DNA of 64,000 nucleotides from Thermoanaerobaculia bacterium. Its GTDB lineage: Bacteria; Acidobacteriota; Thermoanaerobaculia; Multivoradales; Multivoraceae. Both the position numbers and the translations under genes were made by a program. Under the pieces are notes generated by a model, which did not search any database, was not told the DNA's origin, and saw nothing but the letters and a program-made list of their open reading frames with translations. Each line of letters opens with the position of its first letter. Positions within the stretch are counted from its first letter, which is position 1. The stretch covers positions 1,280,001 through 1,344,000 of the forward strand of contig OY762911.1 of NCBI GenBank assembly GCA_963666565.1, read 5' to 3'. Shown one piece after another: positions 28,700-42,536 of this stretch.

Positions 28700-30447
28700 C
28701 CCGCATGTTTCACCGATGCGGCGTTCGCGTCGGGTTTTGAGCTGAGGAAGGCGTTTTGGCGTTGGCCGGAGGCTCTCGCTGGGCTTGGGCGTCGCAGGCG
28801 GGTTCGAGTCGGCGTACGGAAGCGTCGCAGGCGGCTGCGGCGGCGCGGCTGGGCGATCTTCGGACGCACTTCGGCCGGGTGTCGATGCAAGGCGTGTTGT
28901 TGTGGGGTCCGATTCCGAGTCGGGTTTCAGGCCGGCGGGTGGTAGAGGGGTTTTCGTTGGAGGTTTGCCAAGGCCTGGGCGAAGTCGTTCTGCCAGGGGA
29001 AGGCGTCGGACAGGTGGATCCAGATGCGGCGGTGGGTGATGCGCACTCTGGCGGCGACCTTGAGCAGGTGGAGGCGCAGAGTGCCGCACTGGAGGCGGGC
29101 CTTGCCGGTATCCGCGAGAGCGAGCCGTCGCACGGCGGCGAGCAGGACGTAGGCGAAGGAGGAGAAGTAGAGGCGCAGTTGATTGGCGGCCATGGTGGCG
29201 CTCGAGGTGCGGTCGGCGAAGAGGTCGAGTTGCTGCTCCTTGATGCGGTTTTCCATGTCTCCGCGGGCGCAGTAGAGCTGCTCGTAGAGCGGCTGCTTGC
29301 CGGCGCGGCTCCTCCGCAGACTGGACACGACGAAGCGGGGATTCGCGCCCTTCGCGAGCCACTCCGCCTTGCCCACCACTCGCCTCTTGCGAGACCACGA
29401 AGTGTCGGTCCGGTAGCGGAACTCACGGAACCGGCGCGACGCCTTGCCGGTCGCATGGAAGCGCCGCCGCGACTTCTGAAGCGGTCGCCCAATCCGCCTC
29501 ACAAGACGGCGATTCCTTGCCACGCCGAACACGAAGCCGATCCCCTGCCTCTCGCACCAGGCCATGATCCGCTCCCGGCAGAAGCCCGAGTCGCCGCGCA
29601 GGACGATTCGCACCTCCGGCCAAGCCTCCCGAATCCGGGCGACGATCGGCGTCAACTCCCGGATCGTGCCCGCGCTGCCATCCTGATTCGACCGCCGCAG
29701 CCGCGCCAGCAGCAGGTGCTCGCCACAGAACGCGTACAGAGGCATGTAGCAGTACGTACCGTAGTAGCCGTGGAAGAACCGGCCCTCCTGAGCCCCGTGC
29801 AAAGGATCGTCGGTCGCATCGAGGTCCAGCACGATCTCCGCGGGCGCCTCCTCGTGAGCCTCCAGAAACAGGTCCACCAACAGACGATCCAACGCCTTCG
29901 TGTCTGCCGGGATCCGCTTGTAGCGGTCGCCCGCCGCCTTGCCCGGACGAGACAACTCCAGCCGATTCAACGCCGATGCGCTCGCCAGCGGACGACCCTT
30001 GTCCCGCGTCCGACGACGATCCGCGCCCGTGATGTCCGACTTGCCCACCAGCAACGCCATGAACGCGTCCCGGCGAAGCTGGTTGTGGTCATTCAGGTCC
30101 TCGTAGCCCAGAGCCAGACCGTAGACCCGCTGAGCCACCAGATCACGCACCGTGTGCTCGACCGCCGAGGGATTCCGGTAGTCCCGAAAACACGACGCCA
30201 TCCGCTCCAGAAGACCGAGGCGAGCCTCCGTCTCCCGAAGCAGCACGCCGCCGCCCTCAGACGTCAACTGGCCGCCGTCGAAACGAACCGTCACCCGACG
30301 GCGACCGTGGCGACCAAACTCAAGCTGCGACGGAGTACACTCTGTGATCACGGGCCTCGCTCCTGCGGATCCTCCAAATGTCTGATACCACTTGGATTAT
30401 CTGCCGGAAGAGGCCCGATCTCAAATCACCCCCGTGAGATATGCGGG
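28700..30447 (-). mobile_element. IS1380-family insertion sequence, apparently complete (1748 bp)
   Basis: Terminal IRs CCCGCATGTTTCAC (28700-28713) and CCCGCATATCTCAC (reverse complement of 30434-30447); flanking CTAG at 28696-28699 and 30448-30451. Confidence 0.9.
28927..30351 (-). CDS. IS1380-family DDE transposase
   Basis: GYEDLNDH, LDLDATDD..HG.QEG, RGDSGF, YCARGDMENRIKE. Confidence 0.95.
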   Translation of the reverse strand: MITECTPSQLEFGRHGRRRVTVRFDGGQLTSEGGGVLLRETEARLGLLERMASCFRDYRNPSAVEHTVRDLVAQRVYGLALGYEDLNDHNQLRRDAFMALLVGKSDITGADRRRTRDKGRPLASASALNRLELSRPGKAAGDRYKRIPADTKALDRLLVDLFLEAHEEAPAEIVLDLDATDDPLHGAQEGRFFHGYYGTYCYMPLYAFCGEHLLLARLRRSNQDGSAGTIRELTPIVARIREAWPEVRIVLRGDSGFCRERIMAWCERQGIGFVFGVARNRRLVRRIGRPLQKSRRRFHATGKASRRFREFRYRTDTSWSRKRRVVGKAEWLAKGANPRFVVSSLRRSRAGKQPLYEQLYCARGDMENRIKEQQLDLFADRTSSATMAANQLRLYFSSFAYVLLAAVRRLALADTGKARLQCGTLRLHLLKVAARVRITHRRIWIHLSDAFPWQNDFAQALANLQRKPLYHPPA

Positions 30448-30553
30448 CTAGCGCCGCCAAACCTGTCGCAGGCTCCATGTTTGGCCCCAGCCCCCACCTC
30501 ACCAAGAGGCCGCGTCGCAGAAACCGCTTCGCTGCGTTCTGCGGCGCAGCCTC

Positions 30554-31360
30554 CTAGTCGGATGTGCGGGAGTAGGCCCCAAGGTCTTGCGAAGTCACCT
30601 CGTCGGACGGCACGAGCCGATAGTGCTTCTCGTCGACGATCTTGACCGCTTCGTCCTCCAGCCGGAGTTCGAACATTGCGATGACCTCGTCGGCCATGAA
30701 CTGGGTAGAGACAGCGCGGCAGATCAAGTCCGGGAACTTCTCCCGACAGCAGAGAATGTCCTGCTTGGTCTGCACGACACCCAGCTGGTCGGAGCCGGAT
30801 TTGGCCTGAACAGGGACCACGTACTGTCGGCCGTGGCGATCCAGGCCCGCGTAGATCTCGTCGATCTCGATCTGGCCGACGTTGGCCACGGTGGTGCGCA
30901 GGTGGCTCTGCAGGGAGTAGGCGACGATCCCCAGGAAGACGTCGATCAGGCGGTTGTAGCGCACCTTGGCGAGTAGCGCCTGCTCGTCGGAGAGCGCGTA
31001 GGCACCGACGATCTCGGGTGTGGCGTCCGGGATCTTGGTTGTGATCAGGGCCGGGTTGGGAACGACGCGGCTGATGGGTACGAGCCGGAATGCGTAGTTG
31101 GAGATTCCGGTACCCTCGATAACCCATTCTTGGCCTTCGGGCTGAGTGGCGACTATCGCGTCGGGGAGCGCCCGCCGATGACGGAAGGCGTAGACGACGT
31201 CGCCCAGGTTGCGAGGCGTGTCGACGCCGAGTCGCTCGGCAGCGGTTGCGAGGTCGTCGCGATGGAAGCTCAGCGACTTCGCGCCGGGCCGATAGCGATC
31301 TTCGAATACGCGTTCGATGATGGCGCTGTAGATCGACGCCTGAGGATCGGGGGCGCTCAC
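30554..31360 (-). CDS. Putative restriction endonuclease (PD-(D/E)xK-like) coupled to dcm
   Basis: GTGA overlap with the MTase stop; NLGDVVY, DEQALLAKVRYNRL, QIEIDE...VPVQAK. Confidence 0.65.
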   Translation of the reverse strand: MSAPDPQASIYSAIIERVFEDRYRPGAKSLSFHRDDLATAAERLGVDTPRNLGDVVYAFRHRRALPDAIVATQPEGQEWVIEGTGISNYAFRLVPISRVVPNPALITTKIPDATPEIVGAYALSDEQALLAKVRYNRLIDVFLGIVAYSLQSHLRTTVANVGQIEIDEIYAGLDRHGRQYVVPVQAKSGSDQLGVVQTKQDILCCREKFPDLICRAVSTQFMADEVIAMFELRLEDEAVKIVDEKHYRLVPSDEVTSQDLGAYSRTSD

Positions 31361-32679
31361 GCGAAGAGCCTGCGCGGCGAGGGTGCAAGCGACGCCTCGA
31401 TGTCCTCTTGCTTTCGCTTCCTGGTGCCGCTCTTGCGGTCGCGTCGGCCGATGGGAACCGGCACTCCCCAATACTCGGAGGCTTTGGACATGTTCATGCG
31501 AAGGAGCTCGACATCGCCAAGGCGTATCGTAGAGCTTGGCTGCGTCGGCCGTATCTCGGCTGCCTGGAGGATGCTGGTGGCCACGGCTCGCGCAAGCGGC
31601 GGAGGGACCGAGTTGCCGATTTGGCGCGCGCCGTGCCACTTCGTTCGATGGAAGCGGAACCAGTCAGGAAACCCGTGTAGCCGAGCCATCTCGCGCACTG
31701 TCACGCACCGCGGCTTGGCGTAGTGAATGGGGCGTGGACTGGTGAAAGCGCCCCGCGCAGAGTCGGTTCCCGCACGCAGAGTGTTCGAGAGCCCACGACG
31801 CGAGAGCTTGAACAGGCGCGAGACCGGTTCCACCGTGCCGGGCGGAGTTTCGGCGAAGCGCCGGCGGGATATGGGCGTGTGGGCCGTACGAGCGCTCGCG
31901 CTGAGGAGGTTGGGATCCCACTCGCGACGGTAACCGTACTGCCAAGCGCCATCGTCGACACAGCGCATCTTCTCGGCGTAGGGACTGGGCACGCCCCAGG
32001 CGTCGCTCGACACTTCGTCACTGCGCAGCAACTCGGAGTAGGCCTCCGCCTCGGGAAGATCGTCCAGCGCATCTTCGCAGCGTGGCCCCGTGAATGAGCC
32101 CGTCGCAGCGCAGAGCACTTGGGGTCTGGGGTAGTCGGGCAGGGGCATGTCGCTCCGGGCGCCGATCAGGAACAGCCGCTCCCGGTTCTGCGGGACATCG
32201 AAGTGGGCCGCATTGAGAACCTGCCAAGGCGTCCGAACGCGATAGCCCCGGCCGTTCAGAGCATCGACGAGCTCCTCGAGGAACTGGCGGTGCCTGCCGA
32301 TGGTCAGTCCCTTGACGTTCTCGAAGACGAAGAACCTGGTGTCGAGCTCGGCCACCAGCCGAACGAACTCGCTTACCAAGGCGTTACGCGGGTCGTCGAG
32401 CGCCCGCTGCCCGATGAGGGAAAAGCCCTGGCACGGCGCACCGCCGAACACGACGTCGACCGGACGCGAATCTGCGTTCGCCAGCCGGCGCAGTTCGTCC
32501 CCGGTCAAGCCAACAACCGAGCGTGGAAGGGTCGTGGAATAGGGAAAGTTGAATTTGTGCGCAGCGGCATGAACAGGGTCGACCTCGACCGTCGCGGCAA
32601 TGTCGAAACCGGCTTGTTCGAAACCCAAGCTAAGGCCGCCTACACCGCCGAACAGGTCGATGCCGACGGGTCTGGTCAC
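31357..32679 (-). CDS. dcm: DNA (cytosine-5)-methyltransferase
   Basis: DLFGGVGG, GGAPCQGFS, FENVKG, PQNRER, RLHGFPD, QIGNSVPP. Confidence 0.95.
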   Translation of the reverse strand: MTRPVGIDLFGGVGGLSLGFEQAGFDIAATVEVDPVHAAAHKFNFPYSTTLPRSVVGLTGDELRRLANADSRPVDVVFGGAPCQGFSLIGQRALDDPRNALVSEFVRLVAELDTRFFVFENVKGLTIGRHRQFLEELVDALNGRGYRVRTPWQVLNAAHFDVPQNRERLFLIGARSDMPLPDYPRPQVLCAATGSFTGPRCEDALDDLPEAEAYSELLRSDEVSSDAWGVPSPYAEKMRCVDDGAWQYGYRREWDPNLLSASARTAHTPISRRRFAETPPGTVEPVSRLFKLSRRGLSNTLRAGTDSARGAFTSPRPIHYAKPRCVTVREMARLHGFPDWFRFHRTKWHGARQIGNSVPPPLARAVATSILQAAEIRPTQPSSTIRLGDVELLRMNMSKASEYWGVPVPIGRRDRKSGTRKRKQEDIEASLAPSPRRLFA

Positions 32680-32754
32680 GCCTCGGATCCCGTCCTACTG
32701 CGCATGGGCAGGAGAGCCCTGCCGGCGCCCGTGCGGCACGAGCGGAGCGCGGCC

Positions 32755-33165
32755 TCAGTCGGCCTCGGGGAATCGCACGATCTTGTCGATTGCCGTTGGC
32801 TTGTCGCGCAATTCACATTGCCAAACGACGAGGACGGCCCAGCCGTCGGCCTGGAGATCCCTGACGTTCCTCTCATCGCGCTTCCGATTGGCCTCGATCT
32901 TGGGTTGCCAGTACTCGATCCGCGACTTGGGAAGATTGCCCCAACGGCAGGAGTGACCATGCCAGAAACAGCCGTGAACGAAGAGGATCTTCCGCCGACT
33001 CGGGAAGACGATGTCCGGCGATCCCGGAAGGTCGCGCCGGTGCAGGCTGTACCTGAAGCCGCGACGGTGCAACGCGCGCCGCACGGCCATTTCGGGACCC
33101 GTGTTGGCGGTGCTGACGCTCCGCATGATCCGGCTCCGACGCTGCGCCGTGACGTGGTCCACCAT
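32755..33165 (-). CDS. vsr: Very short patch repair endonuclease
   Basis: RSRIM...NTGPE, LPGSPDIV, FVHGCFWHGH, VVWQCE. Confidence 0.95.
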   Translation of the reverse strand: MVDHVTAQRRSRIMRSVSTANTGPEMAVRRALHRRGFRYSLHRRDLPGSPDIVFPSRRKILFVHGCFWHGHSCRWGNLPKSRIEYWQPKIEANRKRDERNVRDLQADGWAVLVVWQCELRDKPTAIDKIVRFPEAD

Positions 33166-33600
33166 GGTCAGGGCGCGGGTACCCGCAAGGCGAGGATGCC
33201 GGGCGGTTGTGCCAGCCCCGACGTGCACGCTGCGGCACAGTCGGCGGCAAGGGCCGGAGGACATCTCGGAGCGGCGAACGGAGGTCGAGCATCGGATGGA
33301 GTGTAACCCGCCATCGGGGCCGTCTGCGACCGGTTGAGCCCTGGTTTCCGCAGCTTGCCGGTAGCGTCCGAGCGGGACGGTCCGCCGGTCGAGTGGGCTC
33401 GCGGCTCCGACTGCCGCTCCCGGCTGAACAGGCAGGCGAACAGAGCGAGAAGGTCGGCTCGTTCCCGACCGACGTCTACGACAACTGGCATGAGTGAGTG
33501 AAGGCAGTCTATCGTCGCGTCTCCGAGGGCCGACTGCGGCTTCAGGAGAGCGTCCTGAGGACGCGCTGCCCTCGGAGGAGCTGGTATTGGAGAATCGCCC

Positions 33601-34824
33601 ATGATCGACCGAATCGCCGTCACAGGCTTCAAGAACCTACGGGACGTAACCGTCGACCTCGGCCGACTGAACCTGTTCGTCGGCGCGAATGCCAGCGGCA
33701 AGTCGAACTTCTTCGAGGCGCTCCGCGTGCTGCAGGGGATCGGCAGCGGTCTGGCGGTGGGCGAGATCCTGGACGGCCAACCGGATACCGCGGCCGGGGA
33801 AAGGTGGCAGGGTGTCCGAGGCGGGAGTGCGAAGGCGTGTTTCGAGGGGCCTGAGCGATCGGAGACGTTCTCCATAGCGGCCGCCGGCAAGCTGAGTGCA
33901 GGAGAGGCGACGAGGCGATGGGAGTATTCGGTGAGTCTCTCGCCTCGGCTCGGGCGCGTGACCGGGGAGAGTCTGCGGTTCGGAGGCCATGACGTCTTTG
34001 CCGCTGTGCGCGGTGCCGACGCCGGAGTCGGGAATGGCACTGTCGAGGTCGAGTACCGGCGAGGAGGACGGCTTCCGCCCCTGCCCCTGTCGTTCGACCG
34101 TTCCCGGCCGGTTCTGTCGCAGTTCAAGGCCTCGGATCGCGTCGAGTCGCGGCATCGCAGGTACGCCGCGGGCGTGGCGGACGCGTTGGCCGACGTGCAG
34201 CGTGTCGCTCCGGCGCCGGCAGTGCTGAGGGGTTACTCGCAGACGCGCCAGGCGGACCGCTTGGGCGAACAGGGCGAGAACTTTGCCGCCCTGGTCAGGG
34301 CGATCTGCGCCGACCCCGAAGGGGAAGCCGCGTACCTCGACTGGCTTCGCCAGTTGCTGCCGGCGAAGGTGGACGGAGTGGGGACCTTGTCGGGTGCCAT
34401 GGGCGAGCCGCTCTTCATGCTGCGTGAGCGGGGCAGGGGGTTCCCTGCACCGGTGTTGAGCGACGGGACGCTCCGGTTCGCCGCGATCGCCGCGGCCTTC
34501 TTTCAGCCCGACATGCCTCGGATCATGACGATCGAGGAGATCGAACGCGGCGTACACCCGAGTCGGACCCGTCTGATCCTGGAGCTTCTCCAGACCAATG
34601 CCGCGACTGGCTCGACGCAGATTCTGGCGACGACTCACTCGCCGGCAGTTCTGGCGTGGCTGGAACTGTCGGAGTACGCGTCGACGTACGTCTGCCGGCG
34701 CGATGCGGCTACGGGTGAAGCGACGATCAGGCGGCTCGGCGACCTTCCTGGCTTCGGGAGGGCTGCCGAGACCGGCTCGCTTCCCGAGATGTTCGCGGAA
34801 GGCTGGCTGGAGGCGGCCCCGTGA
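33601..34824 (+). CDS. AAA_21/COG4637-type ATPase
   Basis: GFKNL, GANASGKSN, LSDGTLRF, IEEIERGVHP, TTHSP. Confidence 0.85.
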   Translation: MIDRIAVTGFKNLRDVTVDLGRLNLFVGANASGKSNFFEALRVLQGIGSGLAVGEILDGQPDTAAGERWQGVRGGSAKACFEGPERSETFSIAAAGKLSAGEATRRWEYSVSLSPRLGRVTGESLRFGGHDVFAAVRGADAGVGNGTVEVEYRRGGRLPPLPLSFDRSRPVLSQFKASDRVESRHRRYAAGVADALADVQRVAPAPAVLRGYSQTRQADRLGEQGENFAALVRAICADPEGEAAYLDWLRQLLPAKVDGVGTLSGAMGEPLFMLRERGRGFPAPVLSDGTLRFAAIAAAFFQPDMPRIMTIEEIERGVHPSRTRLILELLQTNAATGSTQILATTHSPAVLAWLELSEYASTYVCRRDAATGEATIRRLGDLPGFGRAAETGSLPEMFAEGWLEAAP

Positions 34825-36742: not shown

Positions 36743-36802
36743 CGCTTGATCGGTGTCGCAGAGTGAGCGGTGAGACTATCCGCCCTGCTAGCCTTCCGCG
36801 TC

Positions 36803-37492
36803 TTGATCGTACGGGTGCTGAGCTTCGCCACCGCGCTGGACGCTGTAGGCAGCGCCGAGACGGAACACGACCTCCCGGACGGCAGTACGGTCGCCGATCT
36901 GGTGGAGCGCCTGACGGCGGCGTACCCCGGTCTGGAAGCCCTCTGGCCCCGTCTGGCCGTGGCCGTCGACGGGGAAGTCGCCGGCGATCGGACGGCGCCC
37001 CTTCACGACGGCGCCGAAGTGGCTCTCCTGCCCCCGGTTTCCGGCGGCTCATGCGGCGCCGGCGCCGGCCGGCTGCGGGACGGTCCCGTCGACGCGGACA
37101 CGGTGTCCTCCGTACGCGCCGGCGTGGAGGACGCCGGCAAGGGAGCGGTCGTCGTCTTCGTCGGCAACGTCCGCAACTCCTTCGGCGGCCGCCCCGTGGA
37201 GCGGATTACTTACTCGGCGTATCCGGCGATGGCGGAGAAGCGCCTCGAACGGATCGTGAATGAGCTTGAGGCCGCGCAGCCGGGTACCCGCGTCGAGATC
37301 GCGCACGGTCTTGGCACCTTGGAGGTGGGCGACGCCAGCGTCGCGATCGCCACCGCGTCGGCGCATCGTCAGCAGGCCTACGAGGTGAGTCGTCTCGCTC
37401 TCGAACGCCTCAAGGCCGAGGTGCCGATCTGGAAGCGCGAGCACTACGCCGACGGCAAGTCGGCATGGCGGGAAGAGGAACCGCTGGAGTAG
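36803..37492 (+). CDS. moaE: MoaD-MoaE fusion (molybdopterin synthase)
   Basis: MoaD part ends LPPVSGG; MoaE GAVVVFVGNVR, AYPAMA, LKAEVPIWKRE; start uncertain (36770 or 36803). Confidence 0.9.
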   Translation: MIVRVLSFATALDAVGSAETEHDLPDGSTVADLVERLTAAYPGLEALWPRLAVAVDGEVAGDRTAPLHDGAEVALLPPVSGGSCGAGAGRLRDGPVDADTVSSVRAGVEDAGKGAVVVFVGNVRNSFGGRPVERITYSAYPAMAEKRLERIVNELEAAQPGTRVEIAHGLGTLEVGDASVAIATASAHRQQAYEVSRLALERLKAEVPIWKREHYADGKSAWREEEPLE

Positions 37493-37695
37493 AAGCCTCT
37501 CCGGCGTACTCCGAAGTGCCGCCTCCCTGACGGCCGGCGCGTCTCGAAGCGAGGAGGCCGGAGCACGCAGCCTGGACCGTCGAAGTCCTGAAGTGTTCTT
37601 CTGGAGCGCCGCAGTCGGTGCGGCCCGTCGCCGGTGCCTTCCCTTGAAGAATGTCAGAAAGATGGCTAGAGTTCCGACAGTCGAGAGGTGTCGCC

Positions 37696-38289
37696 ATGGA
37701 ACGACTGAGCCAAACGGTACTGCAGTACGCGGAAGAACAGCCGGAAGGCGCCCCGGTGCTGGCGAAGGGGCTGTTGCATCTTGGCACTCGGGCGGCGGTC
37801 GACCAGGTCCTGTCGCGTCTTGTGCGGCGCGGCGCGCTGCTGCGGGTGGGGCGGGGCGTGTACGTCCTGCCGGTAGAGAGCCGTTTCGGCCGCCGCGCAC
37901 CGTCGGTCGAGAAGACAGTCATGGCGCTCGCGGCCGCGCGCGGTGAGCGGATTGCGAACAGCGGCGCGATGGCGGCCAACGTGCTCGGCCTGACTGAACA
38001 GGTGCCCGTCAGGCGCGTCTTTCTGACGTCTGGACCGAGCCGGACCTTGACGCTCGGCCGCGAGCGGATCGAGTTGCGCCATGCGCCTCCGTGGCAACTG
38101 GCGCTGGCCGGCCGGCGCGCCGGCGAGGCGATCAGGGCGCTCGCCTGGCTCGGGCGTGACCGGGCGGTTGAAGCGACGGGGCTGGTGCGGGAACGGTTGA
38201 GCGAGGATGAGCGCCGGGAACTCGGCAGCGTGAGCGCACGGATGCCGGGATGGCTGGCCGGTCCGGTGAACGCGGTGGCCTATGGCTGA
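37696..38289 (+). CDS. DUF6088 / AbiEi-like type IV TA antitoxin (wHTH)
   Basis: LHLGTRAAVDQVLSRL...RVGRGVY, AANVLGLTEQVP, LTSGPSR. Confidence 0.8.
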   Translation: MERLSQTVLQYAEEQPEGAPVLAKGLLHLGTRAAVDQVLSRLVRRGALLRVGRGVYVLPVESRFGRRAPSVEKTVMALAAARGERIANSGAMAANVLGLTEQVPVRRVFLTSGPSRTLTLGRERIELRHAPPWQLALAGRRAGEAIRALAWLGRDRAVEATGLVRERLSEDERRELGSVSARMPGWLAGPVNAVAYG

Positions 38290-38399
38290 GCGGCTCGGTC
38301 TCGCTGGAGGCGCGCTGTCGGCCCTGGCCGACGACTGCGCGGGATAGTGGAGGGTCGGTGGCTACTCGACGAAGCCGTGTGCCGAACGAAGTATGAACC

Positions 38400-41054
38400 T
38401 CAGTTCGTGAAACGTTCAACGAACCGTGCACAGTGTAGGTTCCCTGGCTCTCTCTCCAGCCCGATGCGGGCGACGTCAATACCTCGCTCGGGATGACCCG
38501 CGTTGACGTAGAGCCAAGCCAACCGAGAACAATCAGTGCCGCTCATCTCGTTCCGTCTCGCCTCTAGCGCTTCGATCACCTCAGACAGGATCGTCTCTCG
38601 ATCCAGACGCCATGCGTGATCGGTCCGGACGGTGGGGGACTGGTAGATCAGGTGGTTGATTCGATTCGCGAGTCTGCTGACGTCGACCAACTTCCTACCA
38701 GGAGAAACAGCCGCCTCACTGAGGGCCTGCACTTCGCCAACTCCGTCCCCGTCCTGACCTCGCAGGTCCGCCATCCTCTCCCAGGCCGGGCCTACGTTCT
38801 GTCCGTCCGCCTCCTGAATGTACCGCCGCAGATAGAACCGGGCACGCTTACGGGTCTCGGCGGTGTCCCTGCCGTCGGTGACCAGCTCGGCAAGCCGGAG
38901 ATAGACAAACGGGAACCTGTCAGCCAGATACTCAAGTACGGCCAGGTCCTCGGCCTCTACGAAGTCGTTTCCGTCGGAGGCCCGTCTCGCAACGCGGCGA
39001 ACCAAGTTGTCGATTCGCCGCCCGACGCCGTGTGACGGGCGGCCACTATCGGCCCCAAAGTCCATCAGCAGTTTCCGGTCTTCACGTACAGCGGCCTTCA
39101 GGGGGCTGGTCTTGAGTTCTCTCTTGCCGAAGAGGGAAGCGGCCAACGGGACGCTGACGAAGGCCGCGTGCGCCTCCCCGTCCTCGGAACGTTCCGCCAA
39201 CGAGTAGCCCACCACCTCCTGCAGGACCCCGTCTACATCCACGTCATCCTCGGGTCTACGGCGCATGACCGCCTCGACTGCAACCTCGGGTACCTCCACT
39301 CGCCAGCTGCTCAGGAGTAGAAACACGCGCTGGGAGGCAGCGCTCAGAGCGTCGAAGGTCCGTCGGAACAGAGCCTCAAGAACATCCTCGGAGGCTGGTA
39401 GCAGGGTGCGAGGGGTGACCTTTCGTCCGGCTGCCCTCGCTTCCCCCAATGCAAGTCTGATGATGTACGGATGTCCTTCGGACTGTTCGATGAGGGCCGC
39501 CCGGTAGTTGGGCGACACTTCCTCGAGACCCAGGTACTTGGCCCTGCGGTCAATGAGCTGCCTTGCCTCCTCTCGCGCCATTCCCGTCACTTTGAGCGGA
39601 AAGTCGCCCCGGAAGTCCCTGGATCTCGTCGTGATGAGGACCTTGTTTGGAGCACGGACGTGGGCATCGATCCACTCGAACACTTCTGTGGGGTCTTGGA
39701 GAGTCTCGAAGTTGTCGATCACGAACAGCGTAGGAACACCATCTGCTCCCTCACGGAGGTTTTGCTCGAACCATTCCCTCGCCCCGAGGGACGACGCCTG
39801 ACGGTCCGGAGCGTCCAGGATCTCGGCGGCGGCCCTAGCCACATCCAGCAGCCCGAAGACCCCCGGCGAAACGGGCTTCGGTCCTGAGTCGAGAAGATCG
39901 ACGTCCCTCGCACTCAGCCAAAGGACGACATCGTAGGGCGGCGAGTCCAGATCGCTGAGCCCGCGGATCACTGTAAGGGCCAAGGCCGTCTTTCCGATCC
40001 CCCCGCGACCGTTTAGTGTGACTATCCGGTGGCGAAAGGGCTCGAGCAGCTCACGCTGCAGGTCGGCTTCGAGCCGATGACGCTTCACGTAGCCTGACGG
40101 TGGCGGAGGAGAGTTGGTCAGGAGCGATCCGACAACCTCGAGTCCCTTCTGCCCCTGGGTCTCGCTTGCTGGAAGCTCGTTGGGCGGGGCCACCCAACGG
40201 CTTCCGTCCATCTCCCGACTGTCGTTGGAGCTGTAGGACAGCACCTGGAAGCTGGCCGAGTTCTTCCACCTCCCGTTGGGGACGTAGACATCGCGGAGAT
40301 CGATATCGCTAAAGACGAGTGGCACTGGCAGGTGAAGCGGCGCAGCAGCTCTCGACTCAAGGTGAAGATAGACGCCGTCAGCGAGGCGGGAGTTCTCCAC
40401 TTTCCTCTTGAGATACTCGAAAGACCCTGTCTCGCCGAGTAGGGGCGTTACCCTGTACTTGCCCGACAGGTTCTGCCGGAGGAAAGCCCACGGCAACCGC
40501 AACACGCCTGTAGTCTCCTCCACAAGATCCAGAGCCTTCGCCATGGATGGGCAGGCATCCCCCGCTTGGTCTGATCGCGTTGCTCCGTGTCCTCGTGTAC
40601 TACGGTTCCGTACTTGAACAGCAATCTGAAAGAACCTCCGCAACGGCTCCTTGGCGCCAACCGTCACGTCGATGTCCAGGGCTGAGGCAGCTTCGGCCAA
40701 CAGCCCGACCGCCTCTCGCCTCCAATCGTCGCCGCTCACCCGCTTCGTAAGGTCGTTTCTCAAGTTCCGGGCACCAGTTCGGAAGCACTGAGCTGCCGGC
40801 CCAACCAGTGCCTCCTGCAGCACTGCCGACCACTCCCCCAGCGAATCCGCACGAACCAGTCTCCGTTCGAGGGAGTAGCGGCTGCGATCCCTATCGTCGT
40901 CCAGGCAAGCGACCACAGCCGCCGTTACGACCTTCGTGACGAACTCCATCTTCAGCAGCAACGCTTGAAGGTACGCGATATCGCCTTCTTCCCTGTCGCG
41001 CTCGATTCGAGCGTTGATCTCGCTGAAGAGCGACTTGCTGTGCTGAACCTTCAT
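38400..41054 (-). CDS. NB-ARC/STAND NTPase with unassigned N-terminal domain and helical/TPR-like C-terminus
   Basis: GRGGIGKT, WLSAR, LFVIDNFE, LITTR, EGHP; visibly lower GC than neighbours. Confidence 0.8.
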   Translation of the reverse strand: MKVQHSKSLFSEINARIERDREEGDIAYLQALLLKMEFVTKVVTAAVVACLDDDRDRSRYSLERRLVRADSLGEWSAVLQEALVGPAAQCFRTGARNLRNDLTKRVSGDDWRREAVGLLAEAASALDIDVTVGAKEPLRRFFQIAVQVRNRSTRGHGATRSDQAGDACPSMAKALDLVEETTGVLRLPWAFLRQNLSGKYRVTPLLGETGSFEYLKRKVENSRLADGVYLHLESRAAAPLHLPVPLVFSDIDLRDVYVPNGRWKNSASFQVLSYSSNDSREMDGSRWVAPPNELPASETQGQKGLEVVGSLLTNSPPPPSGYVKRHRLEADLQRELLEPFRHRIVTLNGRGGIGKTALALTVIRGLSDLDSPPYDVVLWLSARDVDLLDSGPKPVSPGVFGLLDVARAAAEILDAPDRQASSLGAREWFEQNLREGADGVPTLFVIDNFETLQDPTEVFEWIDAHVRAPNKVLITTRSRDFRGDFPLKVTGMAREEARQLIDRRAKYLGLEEVSPNYRAALIEQSEGHPYIIRLALGEARAAGRKVTPRTLLPASEDVLEALFRRTFDALSAASQRVFLLLSSWRVEVPEVAVEAVMRRRPEDDVDVDGVLQEVVGYSLAERSEDGEAHAAFVSVPLAASLFGKRELKTSPLKAAVREDRKLLMDFGADSGRPSHGVGRRIDNLVRRVARRASDGNDFVEAEDLAVLEYLADRFPFVYLRLAELVTDGRDTAETRKRARFYLRRYIQEADGQNVGPAWERMADLRGQDGDGVGEVQALSEAAVSPGRKLVDVSRLANRINHLIYQSPTVRTDHAWRLDRETILSEVIEALEARRNEMSGTDCSRLAWLYVNAGHPERGIDVARIGLEREPGNLHCARFVERFTN

Positions 41055-41324
41055 CCGGGATCTCGGGTGCCGCCGGGGGCGGGCAATGAATCGGGCGCGG
41101 GCTTCCACGTCCCTACAGCCGAGCGGCGTCCCTCTTTCGGGGGACAGCCGCTGGCTGTCGCTCGCCGGGAGCGCCCACATTCTTCGGCACTTCGCCGGAT
41201 TCGGAGCGAGAAGGACTTGGCGGCGACACCCCATCCTCCAATCGAGTGCGAACGGCCGCACGGGGCCCTTCTGCAGGGTCTCTGGGCGGACGGGTAGGAC
41301 CTCCGTTGCGGCACCACTACGCAG

Positions 41325-41714
41325 CTAAACCGCGAACGACGACCCGCAGCCGCAGGTGCCGACGGCCTTCGGGTTCGAGAACTTGAACCCGGTGCCGGCG
41401 ACGCCGAGCTGGTAGTCGATCGTCGTGCCCTTGAGGTAGCGGGCGCTGATCGGGTCGACGTAGACGCGCAGGCCCTCGTAGTCGAAGACCTCGTCCGTCT
41501 CGCGGCGGTCCGTCTCGAAGTCCAGCGCGTACTCGAAGCCGCTGCAGCCGCCGCCGCGGACGGCGACGCGCAGGCCGTGGTCGGGCGAGAGGCCCTCGTC
41601 CTCGCGGGTGAGCTTGATCATCCGCACCGCCTTCCGGGTCAGGTGCAGCGTATCGGTCGCCTGCTGGGGCGCGGGCGTCGGCGTCGGCGGGGTCGGGAAG
41701 TCGATCTCGGGCAT
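41325..41714 (-). CDS. iscA: A-type Fe-S carrier (IscA/HesB)
   Basis: GGGCSGFEY, CGCGSSF. Confidence 0.9.
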   Translation of the reverse strand: MPEIDFPTPPTPTPAPQQATDTLHLTRKAVRMIKLTREDEGLSPDHGLRVAVRGGGCSGFEYALDFETDRRETDEVFDYEGLRVYVDPISARYLKGTTIDYQLGVAGTGFKFSNPKAVGTCGCGSSFAV

Positions 41715-41942
41715 CTTTCCGGGGCGCGCCGTCGGCGCGGCTCGAACTCCTGCGGCCGGCCGTCTCGAACCTGGGACGGCGGCCTCGGCGTCCGAGAGTA
41801 TCATCGAGCCGTGCCGACCGGGACCTTGGAGGGTTCGATGCGGGCACGCGCGCGCAGCCATGCTCCCGGTCGATGACGACGACTTCATGGACGGTTCGAT
41901 GCGGGCACGCGCGGGCAGCCGCAGTTCAGGGAGCGAACGGCC

Positions 41943-42536
41943 GTGATCCGGGAGCAAGGCCGGGGCGACGGCGGCTGCATCGAGGTCATCACCGGCGGCA
42001 TGTTCTCCGGCAAGAGTGAGGAGTTGCTGCGCCGGCTCCGCCGCGCGCTGATCGCCCGCCAGCGCGTCCAGGTGTTCCGGATCGCCACCGACACCCGGGG
42101 CGGCGACGGCGACGTGCTGCGCACCCGCGACAACCGCAGCCTGTCCGCGGTGACCGTGGCGTCCAGCGACGAGATGCGAGAGAAGCTGACGCTCGGCGTG
42201 GAGGTCGTCGGCATCGACGAGGCCCAGTTCTTCGACGAGGGCCTGGTCGAGCTGGTGACCGAGCTCGCCGACCTGGGCGTGCGGGTGATCGTGGCCGGGC
42301 TGGACCTCGACTTCCGGCGGCGTCCCTTCGGGCCGATCCCGGAACTCATGGCGATCGCGGAGTACGTCGACAAGATGCACGCGGTCTGCGTGCGGTGCGG
42401 GGCCGCGGCCCAGTACTCGCTCCGGATCGCGAGCGGCGAGCAGCAGGTCCTGGTCGGCGACACGGAGGCCTACGAGGCGCGCTGCCGGCGTTGCTACAAC
42501 TCGTCGGGCGAGGCCGAGGGGGCTCGCGCCAGCTAG
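41943..42536 (+). CDS. tdk: Thymidine kinase
   Basis: GGMFSGKSEEL, IDEAQFF, AGLDLDF, CVRC, YEARCRRC. Confidence 0.95.
   Translation: MIREQGRGDGGCIEVITGGMFSGKSEELLRRLRRALIARQRVQVFRIATDTRGGDGDVLRTRDNRSLSAVTVASSDEMREKLTLGVEVVGIDEAQFFDEGLVELVTELADLGVRVIVAGLDLDFRRRPFGPIPELMAIAEYVDKMHAVCVRCGAAAQYSLRIASGEQQVLVGDTEAYEARCRRCYNSSGEAEGARAS

Follow-up and report, generated by a model that had tools for sequence, protein, structure and literature searches.

A HEPN-like, NB-ARC-switched candidate defence protein carried by a stand-alone accessory cassette in Thermoanaerobaculia

Introduction

What does a solitary gene of atypical base composition, set between moaDE and iscA in a genome of Thermoanaerobaculia (Acidobacteriota; Multivoraceae), do for its host? 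The gene lies within a stretch of 64,000 nucleotides (positions 1,280,001 to 1,344,000 of contig OY762911.1, assembly GCA_963666565.1), referred to here as the window, with positions counted from its first nucleotide. It encodes a protein of 884 amino acids (aa) in which a HEPN-like helical head and a beta-rich domain precede an NB-ARC ATPase core of the STAND class and a helical tail. In STAND proteins of the Avs kind, binding of a trigger leads to oligomerisation, effector activation and cell death, and a first-pass annotation, made from the letters of the window, had proposed that this NLR-like protein is a single-gene, sensor-activated RNase used in defence. The comparisons reported below establish the gene as a horizontally acquired accessory cassette with a fixed architecture and an invariant HEPN-like motif, and suggest that its product probably does couple a sensor and an ATPase switch to a HEPN RNase.

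Results

The protein is read from a minus-strand open frame (38400-41261) at an internal ATG, 41054, which is the start common to its homologues in an alignment of 30 sequences (alignment A1). A longer reading of 953 aa from the upstream GTG at 41261 was rejected, because homologues begin at ATG 41054 and because identity to the closest copy, in genome L001, stops 69 bp upstream of that codon. GC content is 61.8% in the gene, compared with 70.4% in the left flank, 70.3% in the right flank and 70.5% in the window as a whole, and the codon-position GC profile of 38400-41054 is that of a real gene. Sequence words sampled from the stretch occur in six sequencing runs from three studies, all of the words in four of these runs, and no RNA data set is listed among them. 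The lower-GC open reading frame (ORF) of 884 aa seen at first pass is therefore genuine, and all the motifs quoted from it (RNRSTRGH, GRGGIGKT, VIDNFE, LITTR and GHP) were recovered on re-translation at the positions given in Table 1. Above the Pfam cut-off the protein matches NB-ARC only, in its core; with the nucleotide-binding motifs intact, and with NB-ARC matched in 5/5 homologues scanned, it is by profile and by motif a STAND NTPase of the NB-ARC (AP-ATPase) type, as the first-pass annotation had it.

Residues 1-330, in front of this core, are without a Pfam match. Only five of these positions are invariant in an alignment of 96 sequences: R149, N150, H156, G227 and G261. The first three are identical in 96/96 sequences, down to 29% identity, and the pattern RN-x(2-5)-H is present in 233/233 full-length (820-960 aa) homologues. 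The spacer from R to H is x5 in 230 of the 233, x4 in two and x6 in one; the family motif can be written h-R-N-[KR]-T-[RK]-[GA]-H-G-A, and the window protein, with R-x6-H, departs from the R-x5-H norm because of a one-residue insertion. An R..H pair by itself is a chance-level feature, and it is the invariance of this one across the family that takes it beyond chance. A second conserved pair, E37 (95/96) and K41 (94/96), lies on the second helix, residues 25-49.

RNase-type HEPN domains carry an Rx4-6H motif in which the arginine is directly followed by a polar residue (mostly N, D or H), and a second acidic residue, typically in the form Ex3[KR], on helix 2 (PMC3710099). Judged by its sequence, the head displays both hallmarks. 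An AlphaFold2 model of head and beta domain, built on our own alignment (mean predicted local distance difference test score, pLDDT, 94.2; predicted template-modelling score 0.89), has a helix at 139-153 that ends with R149 and N150, places H156 in the following loop and starts the next helix at 161 (161-181), with five further helices between residues 58 and 125 forming an insert between helices 2 and 3. In HEPN domains the motif stands at the end of core helix 3 or the start of the loop to helix 4, and inserts between helices 2 and 3 are frequent (PMC3710099); the predicted structure has both properties. When the fold of the head was compared with known structures, at least nine of 50 rows were HEPN proteins by title or paper, eight of them within the top 17, and Csm6 and RnlA were among the matches, at modest fold scores. 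Roquin (ranks 1 and 6) and HI0074 (rank 5), also on that list, are proteins that we take to contain HEPN domains. The HEPN-like motif noticed at first pass is thus a constant feature of the family, and the idea of a HEPN fold gains from a predicted helical head that fits the published hallmarks and from the prominence of HEPN proteins among its best fold matches.

Between head and core lies a beta-rich domain (residues 189-313), confidently modelled, for which no match was found in the PDB; beyond the invariant G227 and G261 it has near-invariant N260, S273, Y274, S297 and T299. For residues 1-320 a pairing of two copies was predicted, with a score of 0.44, the best of three controls scoring 0.00. 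The pairing mark is reached by 20/30 proteins solved as one-chain pairs and by 1/23 solved as single chains, rates that are only rough here, since our own alignment was used. Separate runs share at least 95% of contacts and the partner has a pLDDT of at least 83. The predicted interface is symmetric and involves residues 16, 19-27, 30 and 34 (helix 1), 153-161, 260-261 and 272-279, so taking in the H156 loop together with N260, G261, S273 and Y274. HEPN domains typically dimerise to give bipartite catalytic centres (preprint 10.64898/2026.02.22.705581), and since HEPN RNases typically build their catalytic centre at the dimer interface, the predicted pairing fits a composite site; the model is consistent with a cleft on each subunit that its partner's beta domain closes.

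The same predicted contacts bear on whether the head is an RNase at all. It could instead be that this is a defence or conflict NLR whose head works on a different substrate (DNA, a nucleotide or a cofactor), or provides a binding or oligomerisation surface while toxicity resides elsewhere, for example in the beta domain. No HEPN hidden Markov model matches the head, in nucleotidyltransferases certain HEPN domains bind substrate and have no catalytic role (PMC3710099), and the beta domain, which has invariant residues and no known fold, is as well conserved as the head (38% versus 34% mean pairwise identity). The non-catalytic HEPN domains described in PMC3710099 are, however, those that lose Rx4-6H, whereas here R, N and H are kept in every aligned sequence and E-x3-K is present, and the invariant residues of the beta domain are predicted to lie against the H156 loop of the partner and not to make up a separate site. 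A non-RNase head is accordingly judged unlikely, though it deserves to be kept in mind.

The tail, some 340 residues presumed to comprise a winged helix and a helical or TPR-like sensor, was described at first pass as TPR-like. This holds to the extent that TPR_14 matches residues 845-872 of the query at E 0.025 and that weak matches to TPR_14 or TPR_19 fall in the last 30-40 residues of 4/5 homologues scanned, but none of these is above threshold. A full-length profile run against PDB sequences returned only P-loop matches, to ArsA, and Pfam scans of the query and five homologues found no DNA-binding or other output domain.

Head, core and tail form a fixed combination. A word-indexed search with the full query (8000 candidates scored) recovered 1309 proteins at E ≤0.001, the best 120 of which are 867-950 aa long and cover at least 99% of the query at 46-92% identity; as informative names their sources supply no others than 'hypothetical protein' and 'NB-ARC domain-containing protein'. 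When only the head (residues 1-320) was used in an exhaustive, profile-free search, 534 clusters were obtained at E ≤0.001, 179 of them at E ≤1e-30, and the best 150 consist of the form of about 870 aa, shorter proteins that are probably fragments, and a few longer ones, three of which were scanned and proved to be the same family with added ends. The tail alone (545-884) gave 357 matches, the best 120 all having the same architecture or being fragments of it. It is because both searches return one architecture that the combination is regarded as fixed, and no effector swapping was seen among the 150 head and 120 tail matches listed. Averaged over the pairs formed by 89 full-length members, identity is 34% in the head, 38% in the beta domain, 45% in NB-ARC and 33% in the tail.

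Short forms of the head also exist: 44 proteins of 219-575 aa, mostly on short contigs or with the start of an NB-ARC domain, and most simply explained, from their sequences, as fragments. A 332-aa ORF in one genome of the same genus (L094, 2760-3758, plus strand) matches residues 7-288 alone, at 49% identity, with no NB-ARC or tail following, and is either a truncated relic or a free-standing module of HEPN and beta domains. Looking up a homologue (P0069) in the Atlas returned mainly NB-ARC clusters, together with a cluster of 223-aa proteins with 147 members; the model for this cluster can be aligned with residues 38-274 of P0069 at a template-modelling score of 0.94.

Neither PADLOC nor NCBIfam has a name for the family. 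NCBIfam gave no match to the query, and PADLOC, Avs models included, gave only a chance-level match to mad8 (E 0.03); for seven homologues PADLOC matches were confined to the P-loop range, and among the Avs models the best was Avs4, which matched residues 329-373 of a single homologue at E 0.029. The earlier reluctance to assign the protein to a named Avs type agrees with these PADLOC results.

The extent of the mobile unit is sharply defined by comparison with L001, a metagenome-assembled genome of Candidatus Multivorans (Acidobacteriota), where a copy encodes a 92% identical protein and shares 89% nucleotide identity over 2744 bp, in flanks unrelated to those of the window; the cassette (Table 1) is the only DNA that the two have in common. 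The gene is present once in its genome. Among 24 other genomes of the genus a match was found in three, two of them full-length (46% and 43% identity) and located at other loci, the third a fragment (residues 7-289), and 0/16 genomes from other genera of the order had a match. The moaDE-iscA gap is itself a variable site, empty (≤225 bp) in 8/25 same-genus genomes, 3.8 kb long in the window (37493-41319), and occupied elsewhere by differing cargo of 1.4-8.1 kb (genomes L085-L093 compared), which includes an AbiEi-AbiEii pair, a MacB-type ABC exporter with AraC, a VWA protein, an aminotransferase and several ORFs without Pfam match.

Beyond the genus, relatives are encoded at 319 loci in a scan that took one genome per species. 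The 80 retained, on which the locus comparisons are based, span Acidobacteriota, Pseudomonadota, Chloroflexota, Planctomycetota, Verrucomicrobiota, Gemmatimonadota, Bacteroidota, Actinomycetota, Myxococcota and several candidate phyla. There is no conserved partner gene, since no family occurs within 5 kb in more than 6/80 loci. Sporadic spread, atypical GC, exact cassette ends and the lack of a partner therefore mark an accessory, horizontally moving gene rather than a core regulator, and one that works without partner genes; the proposal of a single-gene system is confirmed in this respect. On two of the seven Ralstonia megaplasmids that carry a copy (H6 and H7, of R. solanacearum), a 38%-identical homologue lies in two pieces spanning 3.4 kb, not 2.6 kb, which suggests interruption by an insertion of about 0.9 kb.

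This distribution is relevant to the possibility that the protein is a signalling STAND with no part in immunity, akin to regulators of the MalT or AfsR type, in which the head would bind a ligand or RNA for regulation instead of killing. Defence and non-defence clades are interspersed in the STAND superfamily tree (PMC13581612), conservation of this family across phyla is unusually even and high, and many of its neighbours are housekeeping genes. A regulator would nevertheless be expected to sit poorly with what is observed: the query and five homologues have no DNA-binding or output domain, copies occur in only 3/24 other genomes of the genus and are only 43-49% identical, and the gene has atypical GC, precise ends within unrelated flanks in L001, and no conserved partner. 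We regard such a role as quite unlikely.

The cassette sits inside a degraded toxin-antitoxin locus. It starts 16 bp past an AbiEii remnant and takes the place of the toxin gene's end and of the spacer on the iscA side. The gene for an AbiEi-like antitoxin (DUF6088/AbiEi_4), which converges on the cassette, is left as an orphan, about 850 bp of the AbiEii toxin gene being missing from the window; in sister genomes L085, L086 and L087 AbiEi is followed by an overlapping ORF of about 337-339 aa, and the one that was scanned (L085) is AbiEii. The AbiEi gene was considered as a partner of the NLR gene and rejected, as it is absent at the L001 copy and pairs with AbiEii in sister genomes. Because it belongs to that pair, and the toxin is here reduced to 88 bp, it is a bystander.

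Further out, one side of the cassette has moaD-moaE, a HAD hydrolase, a GcvT-like gene, an AAA_21/AAA_15 ATPase, a C5 DNA methylase and a DDE transposase, and the other side iscA, thymidine kinase, a hydrolase, a Zn peptidase, a phosphomutase and IleRS. A second lower-GC stretch (28927-34824, 63-66%), 4-10 kb from the NLR gene, holds the transposase, the methylase and the ATPase, as well as a 361-aa ORF that adjoins the methylase and is possibly the endonuclease belonging to it; the whole stretch may represent a small defence islet. A single frame of 240 aa (36770-37492, plus strand) holds MoaD (ThiS family) fused to MoaE. The iscA frame (41325-42380, minus strand, 351 aa) matches Fe-S_biosyn at residues 245-346 only, so that iscA probably starts inside this frame, or else the part in front of the match has another identity.

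To see what accompanies the family elsewhere, 147/153 immediate neighbours of homologues were scanned, the six longest being set aside and three of these scanned later (an Eco57I-type restriction-modification enzyme, a beta-helix surface protein and an outer-membrane barrel). The commonest Pfam family among the 147 is phage integrase (three cases). Aldehyde dehydrogenase, ankyrin, GFO/IDH oxidoreductase, C5 methylase, DDE transposase, Mu transposase, rve, Toprim, Fic, Helicase_C, Schlafen AlbA_2 and the type I S subunit occur twice each, and PADLOC recognised in the same neighbours mostly restriction-modification methylases and specificity subunits, with two or three members each. The check proposed at first pass, whether homologues sit in defence islands, has a mixed outcome: integrases, transposases and restriction-modification genes recur, but there is no strong island signal.

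Such surroundings raise the question of whether the cassette is a selfish or addiction element, or a conflict system directed against plasmids or other mobile elements, or serving kin discrimination, rather than acting on phages. Its position within a broken toxin-antitoxin locus and the integrases and transposases among the commonest neighbours would agree with this. Yet no mobility gene travels with the cassette, no terminal inverted or direct repeats or target duplications were found at its ends, and the sensor-tailed STAND proteins that have been put to the test respond to proteins of phages (PMC13581612), all of which leaves this explanation highly improbable.

Table 1. Positions within the window of the gene, its domains and motifs, the cassette and neighbouring features.
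Feature	Residues	Position	Strand	Basis or remark
Whole gene		38400..41054	-	884 aa plus stop (38400-38402); HEPN-like head, beta domain, NB-ARC NTPase, helical tail
HEPN-like helical domain	11-186	40497..41024	-	AlphaFold2 model
E37-x3-K41 (EFVTK), second HEPN hallmark, helix 25-49	37-41	40932..40946	-	Alignment, model
R149-N150-x5-H156 (RNRSTRGH), predicted catalytic motif	149-156	40587..40610	-	Invariance, model, re-translation
Beta-rich domain	189-313	40116..40490	-	Confident model; invariant G227, G261
NB-ARC NTPase	332-534	39453..40061	-	Pfam PF00931, E 3.6e-7, 30.1 bits, cut-off 23.5
Walker A, GRGGIGKT	349-356	39987..40010	-	Re-translated; G.GG.GK[TS] in 231/233 homologues
Walker B region, VIDNFE	445-450	39705..39722	-	D447, N448, F449, E450, T451 invariant in A1
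LITTR, sensor-1 arginine region	473-477	39624..39638	-	I474, T475, T476, R477 invariant in A1
GHP, GxP-type NB-ARC motif	527-529	39468..39476	-	H528, P529, Y530 invariant in A1
C-terminal region, presumed winged-helix and helical/TPR-like sensor	545-884	38403..39422	-	Sub-threshold TPR matches only
Cassette		38393..41123	-	Only DNA common with L001 copy; gene, 69 bp upstream, 7 bp past stop
AbiEi-like antitoxin gene (DUF6088/AbiEi_4), orphan		37651..38289	+	Convergent neighbour
Remnant of AbiEii toxin gene, 3' part		38290..38377	+	88 bp
DDE transposase		28927-30351	-	
361-aa ORF adjoining C5 methylase		30554-31639	-	Could be its endonuclease
C5 cytosine methylase		31357-32679	-	
AAA_21/AAA_15 ATPase		33601-34824	+	

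Discussion

Taken together, the evidence makes it probable that the product of the gene combines sensor, ATPase switch and HEPN RNase in one chain and would act by abortive infection. On this reading the C-terminal region (545-884) would keep the protein off and recognise a trigger, probably a conserved phage protein or a state induced by infection. Binding of the trigger would cause NB-ARC to exchange or bind ATP and the protein to oligomerise, following the established behaviour of STAND and Avs proteins. Oligomerisation would gather the heads, two of the HEPN-like domains pairing symmetrically, as predicted, with their R149-N150...H156 loops facing each other, and the invariant beta-domain residues of each subunit would close the cleft of its partner to give a composite, metal-independent RNase site. 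Cleavage of host RNA, phage RNA or both would then stop growth and abort the infection. The sensor-activated RNase proposed at first pass therefore has support in silico, and it came through those attempts at refutation that can be made by computation.

Several observations weigh against it. With regard to the head, Pfam found no family in the query head or in 23 head-only fragments (E up to 10), a profile of 23 head sequences run against PDB sequences gave two chance-level matches (E 0.17, to an unrelated protein, and 0.57), and Foldseek gave the two-domain head model no match to the PDB at E ≤0.001, a Csm6 chain standing at rank 34 with E 0.73. The predicted dimer, resting on an uncalibrated alignment, could also be constitutive. 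With regard to defence, most of the 147 neighbours scanned are unrelated housekeeping or unknown genes, with no family present more than three times, so that the context, mobile and partly defence-flavoured, gives a moderate rather than a strong signal; the exporter with AraC, the VWA protein and the aminotransferase found at the same site in sister genomes are non-defence cargo. No copy was present among 50,697 records of a phage collection, and the only plasmid records with one are the seven Ralstonia megaplasmids. The similar rates at which the four regions evolve, which leave no hypervariable sensor, are neutral rather than negative.

How far, then, is the system new? One close comparison, in overall design, is with Avs proteins, of which Avs7-24 were named in a 2026 census of 589 STAND clades by Lee et al. 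(PMC13581612). Like Avs1-5 and Avs7-24, the window family joins effector, STAND core and sensor in a single chain and is stand-alone, patchily distributed and horizontally transferred (PMC13581612). By analogy its logic would be the same, from trigger binding through oligomerisation and effector to cell death. It differs in having an NTPase of NB-ARC type and an effector made of a HEPN-like and a beta domain, and the Avs models of PADLOC match it no further than the P-loop. Its tail of about 340 aa falls below the 400-aa minimum for sensors that the census applied before clustering; the text of PMC13581612 mentions HEPN only for a STAND-less Streptomyces protein, and its main text and legends, to which the comparison is confined, contain no description of the present architecture; one of its 589 clades may be this family. 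Whereas many Avs families swap effectors, head, core and tail of the window family always occur together in the matches listed.

A second comparison is older. Proteins with an N-terminal HEPN domain, a STAND ATPase and TPRs, with or without S1 or cold-shock domains, were noted in 2013 by Anantharaman et al. (PMC3710099), examples being Npun_F6454, MED222_16016 and Desac_1927, and the logic predicted for them, a HEPN RNase governed by a STAND NTPase, is the one suggested here. Set beside the descriptions of these proteins, which are the sole basis of comparison, the window family has a head without any Pfam match, lacks an S1 or cold-shock domain and has an extra beta domain between head and NTPase. 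The term 'undescribed system', used at first pass, therefore needs tempering: the family has no PADLOC or NCBIfam name, but the combination of N-terminal HEPN, STAND and TPR had already been noted.

Stand-alone HEPN RNases offer a third comparison. In DARNA/PD-T7-3, ApeA, PrrC/RloC, RnlA and Csm6 the Rx4-6H site lies at the HEPN dimer interface, as is predicted here, and such enzymes are latent until infection, when they cut cellular RNA, for example tRNA (10.64898/2026.02.22.705581, PMC3710099). They are activated by single-stranded DNA or SSB, deoxydinucleotides, restriction-modification partners or cyclic oligoadenylates, and not by a fused STAND switch, and they have no sequence similarity to the window head that is detectable with Pfam or a profile against PDB sequences. 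In the literature searched, no paper was found that characterises a HEPN-armed NB-ARC protein of this kind.

What is new, accordingly, is a putative HEPN family that had gone unrecognised, an additional, unassigned beta domain and a compact architecture that does not vary, within an overall design already known in outline. A bolder formulation, that these are compact NLRs spanning many phyla, armed with a new HEPN warhead whose site is completed in trans by a novel beta domain and equipped with a short, evenly conserved tail of about 340 aa that recognises a trigger unlike those of Avs1-24, is put forward tentatively, as something possible for which we would not claim the better odds.

If that is true, prokaryotic immunity would have a new effector cassette in the module of HEPN and beta domains, a module that perhaps occurs by itself too, in a stand-alone family of about 220 aa. 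The practical value is modest, in that the protein is a well-defined candidate for phage-defence assays and not a conceptual surprise. Its head does, however, make a clean test case for whether STAND oligomerisation can switch on a HEPN nuclease, and active sites that depend on a dimer are well suited to activation by induced proximity. The fixed three-part architecture, unlike the shuffling of effectors among Avs proteins, suggests tight co-adaptation of sensor, switch and warhead. If the RNase reading holds, the bacterial NLR-like receptors would gain a widespread RNase-armed family, of more than 1300 clusters at 90% identity and extending from Acidobacteriota to Actinomycetota, which current annotation resources label as 'NB-ARC domain-containing protein'.

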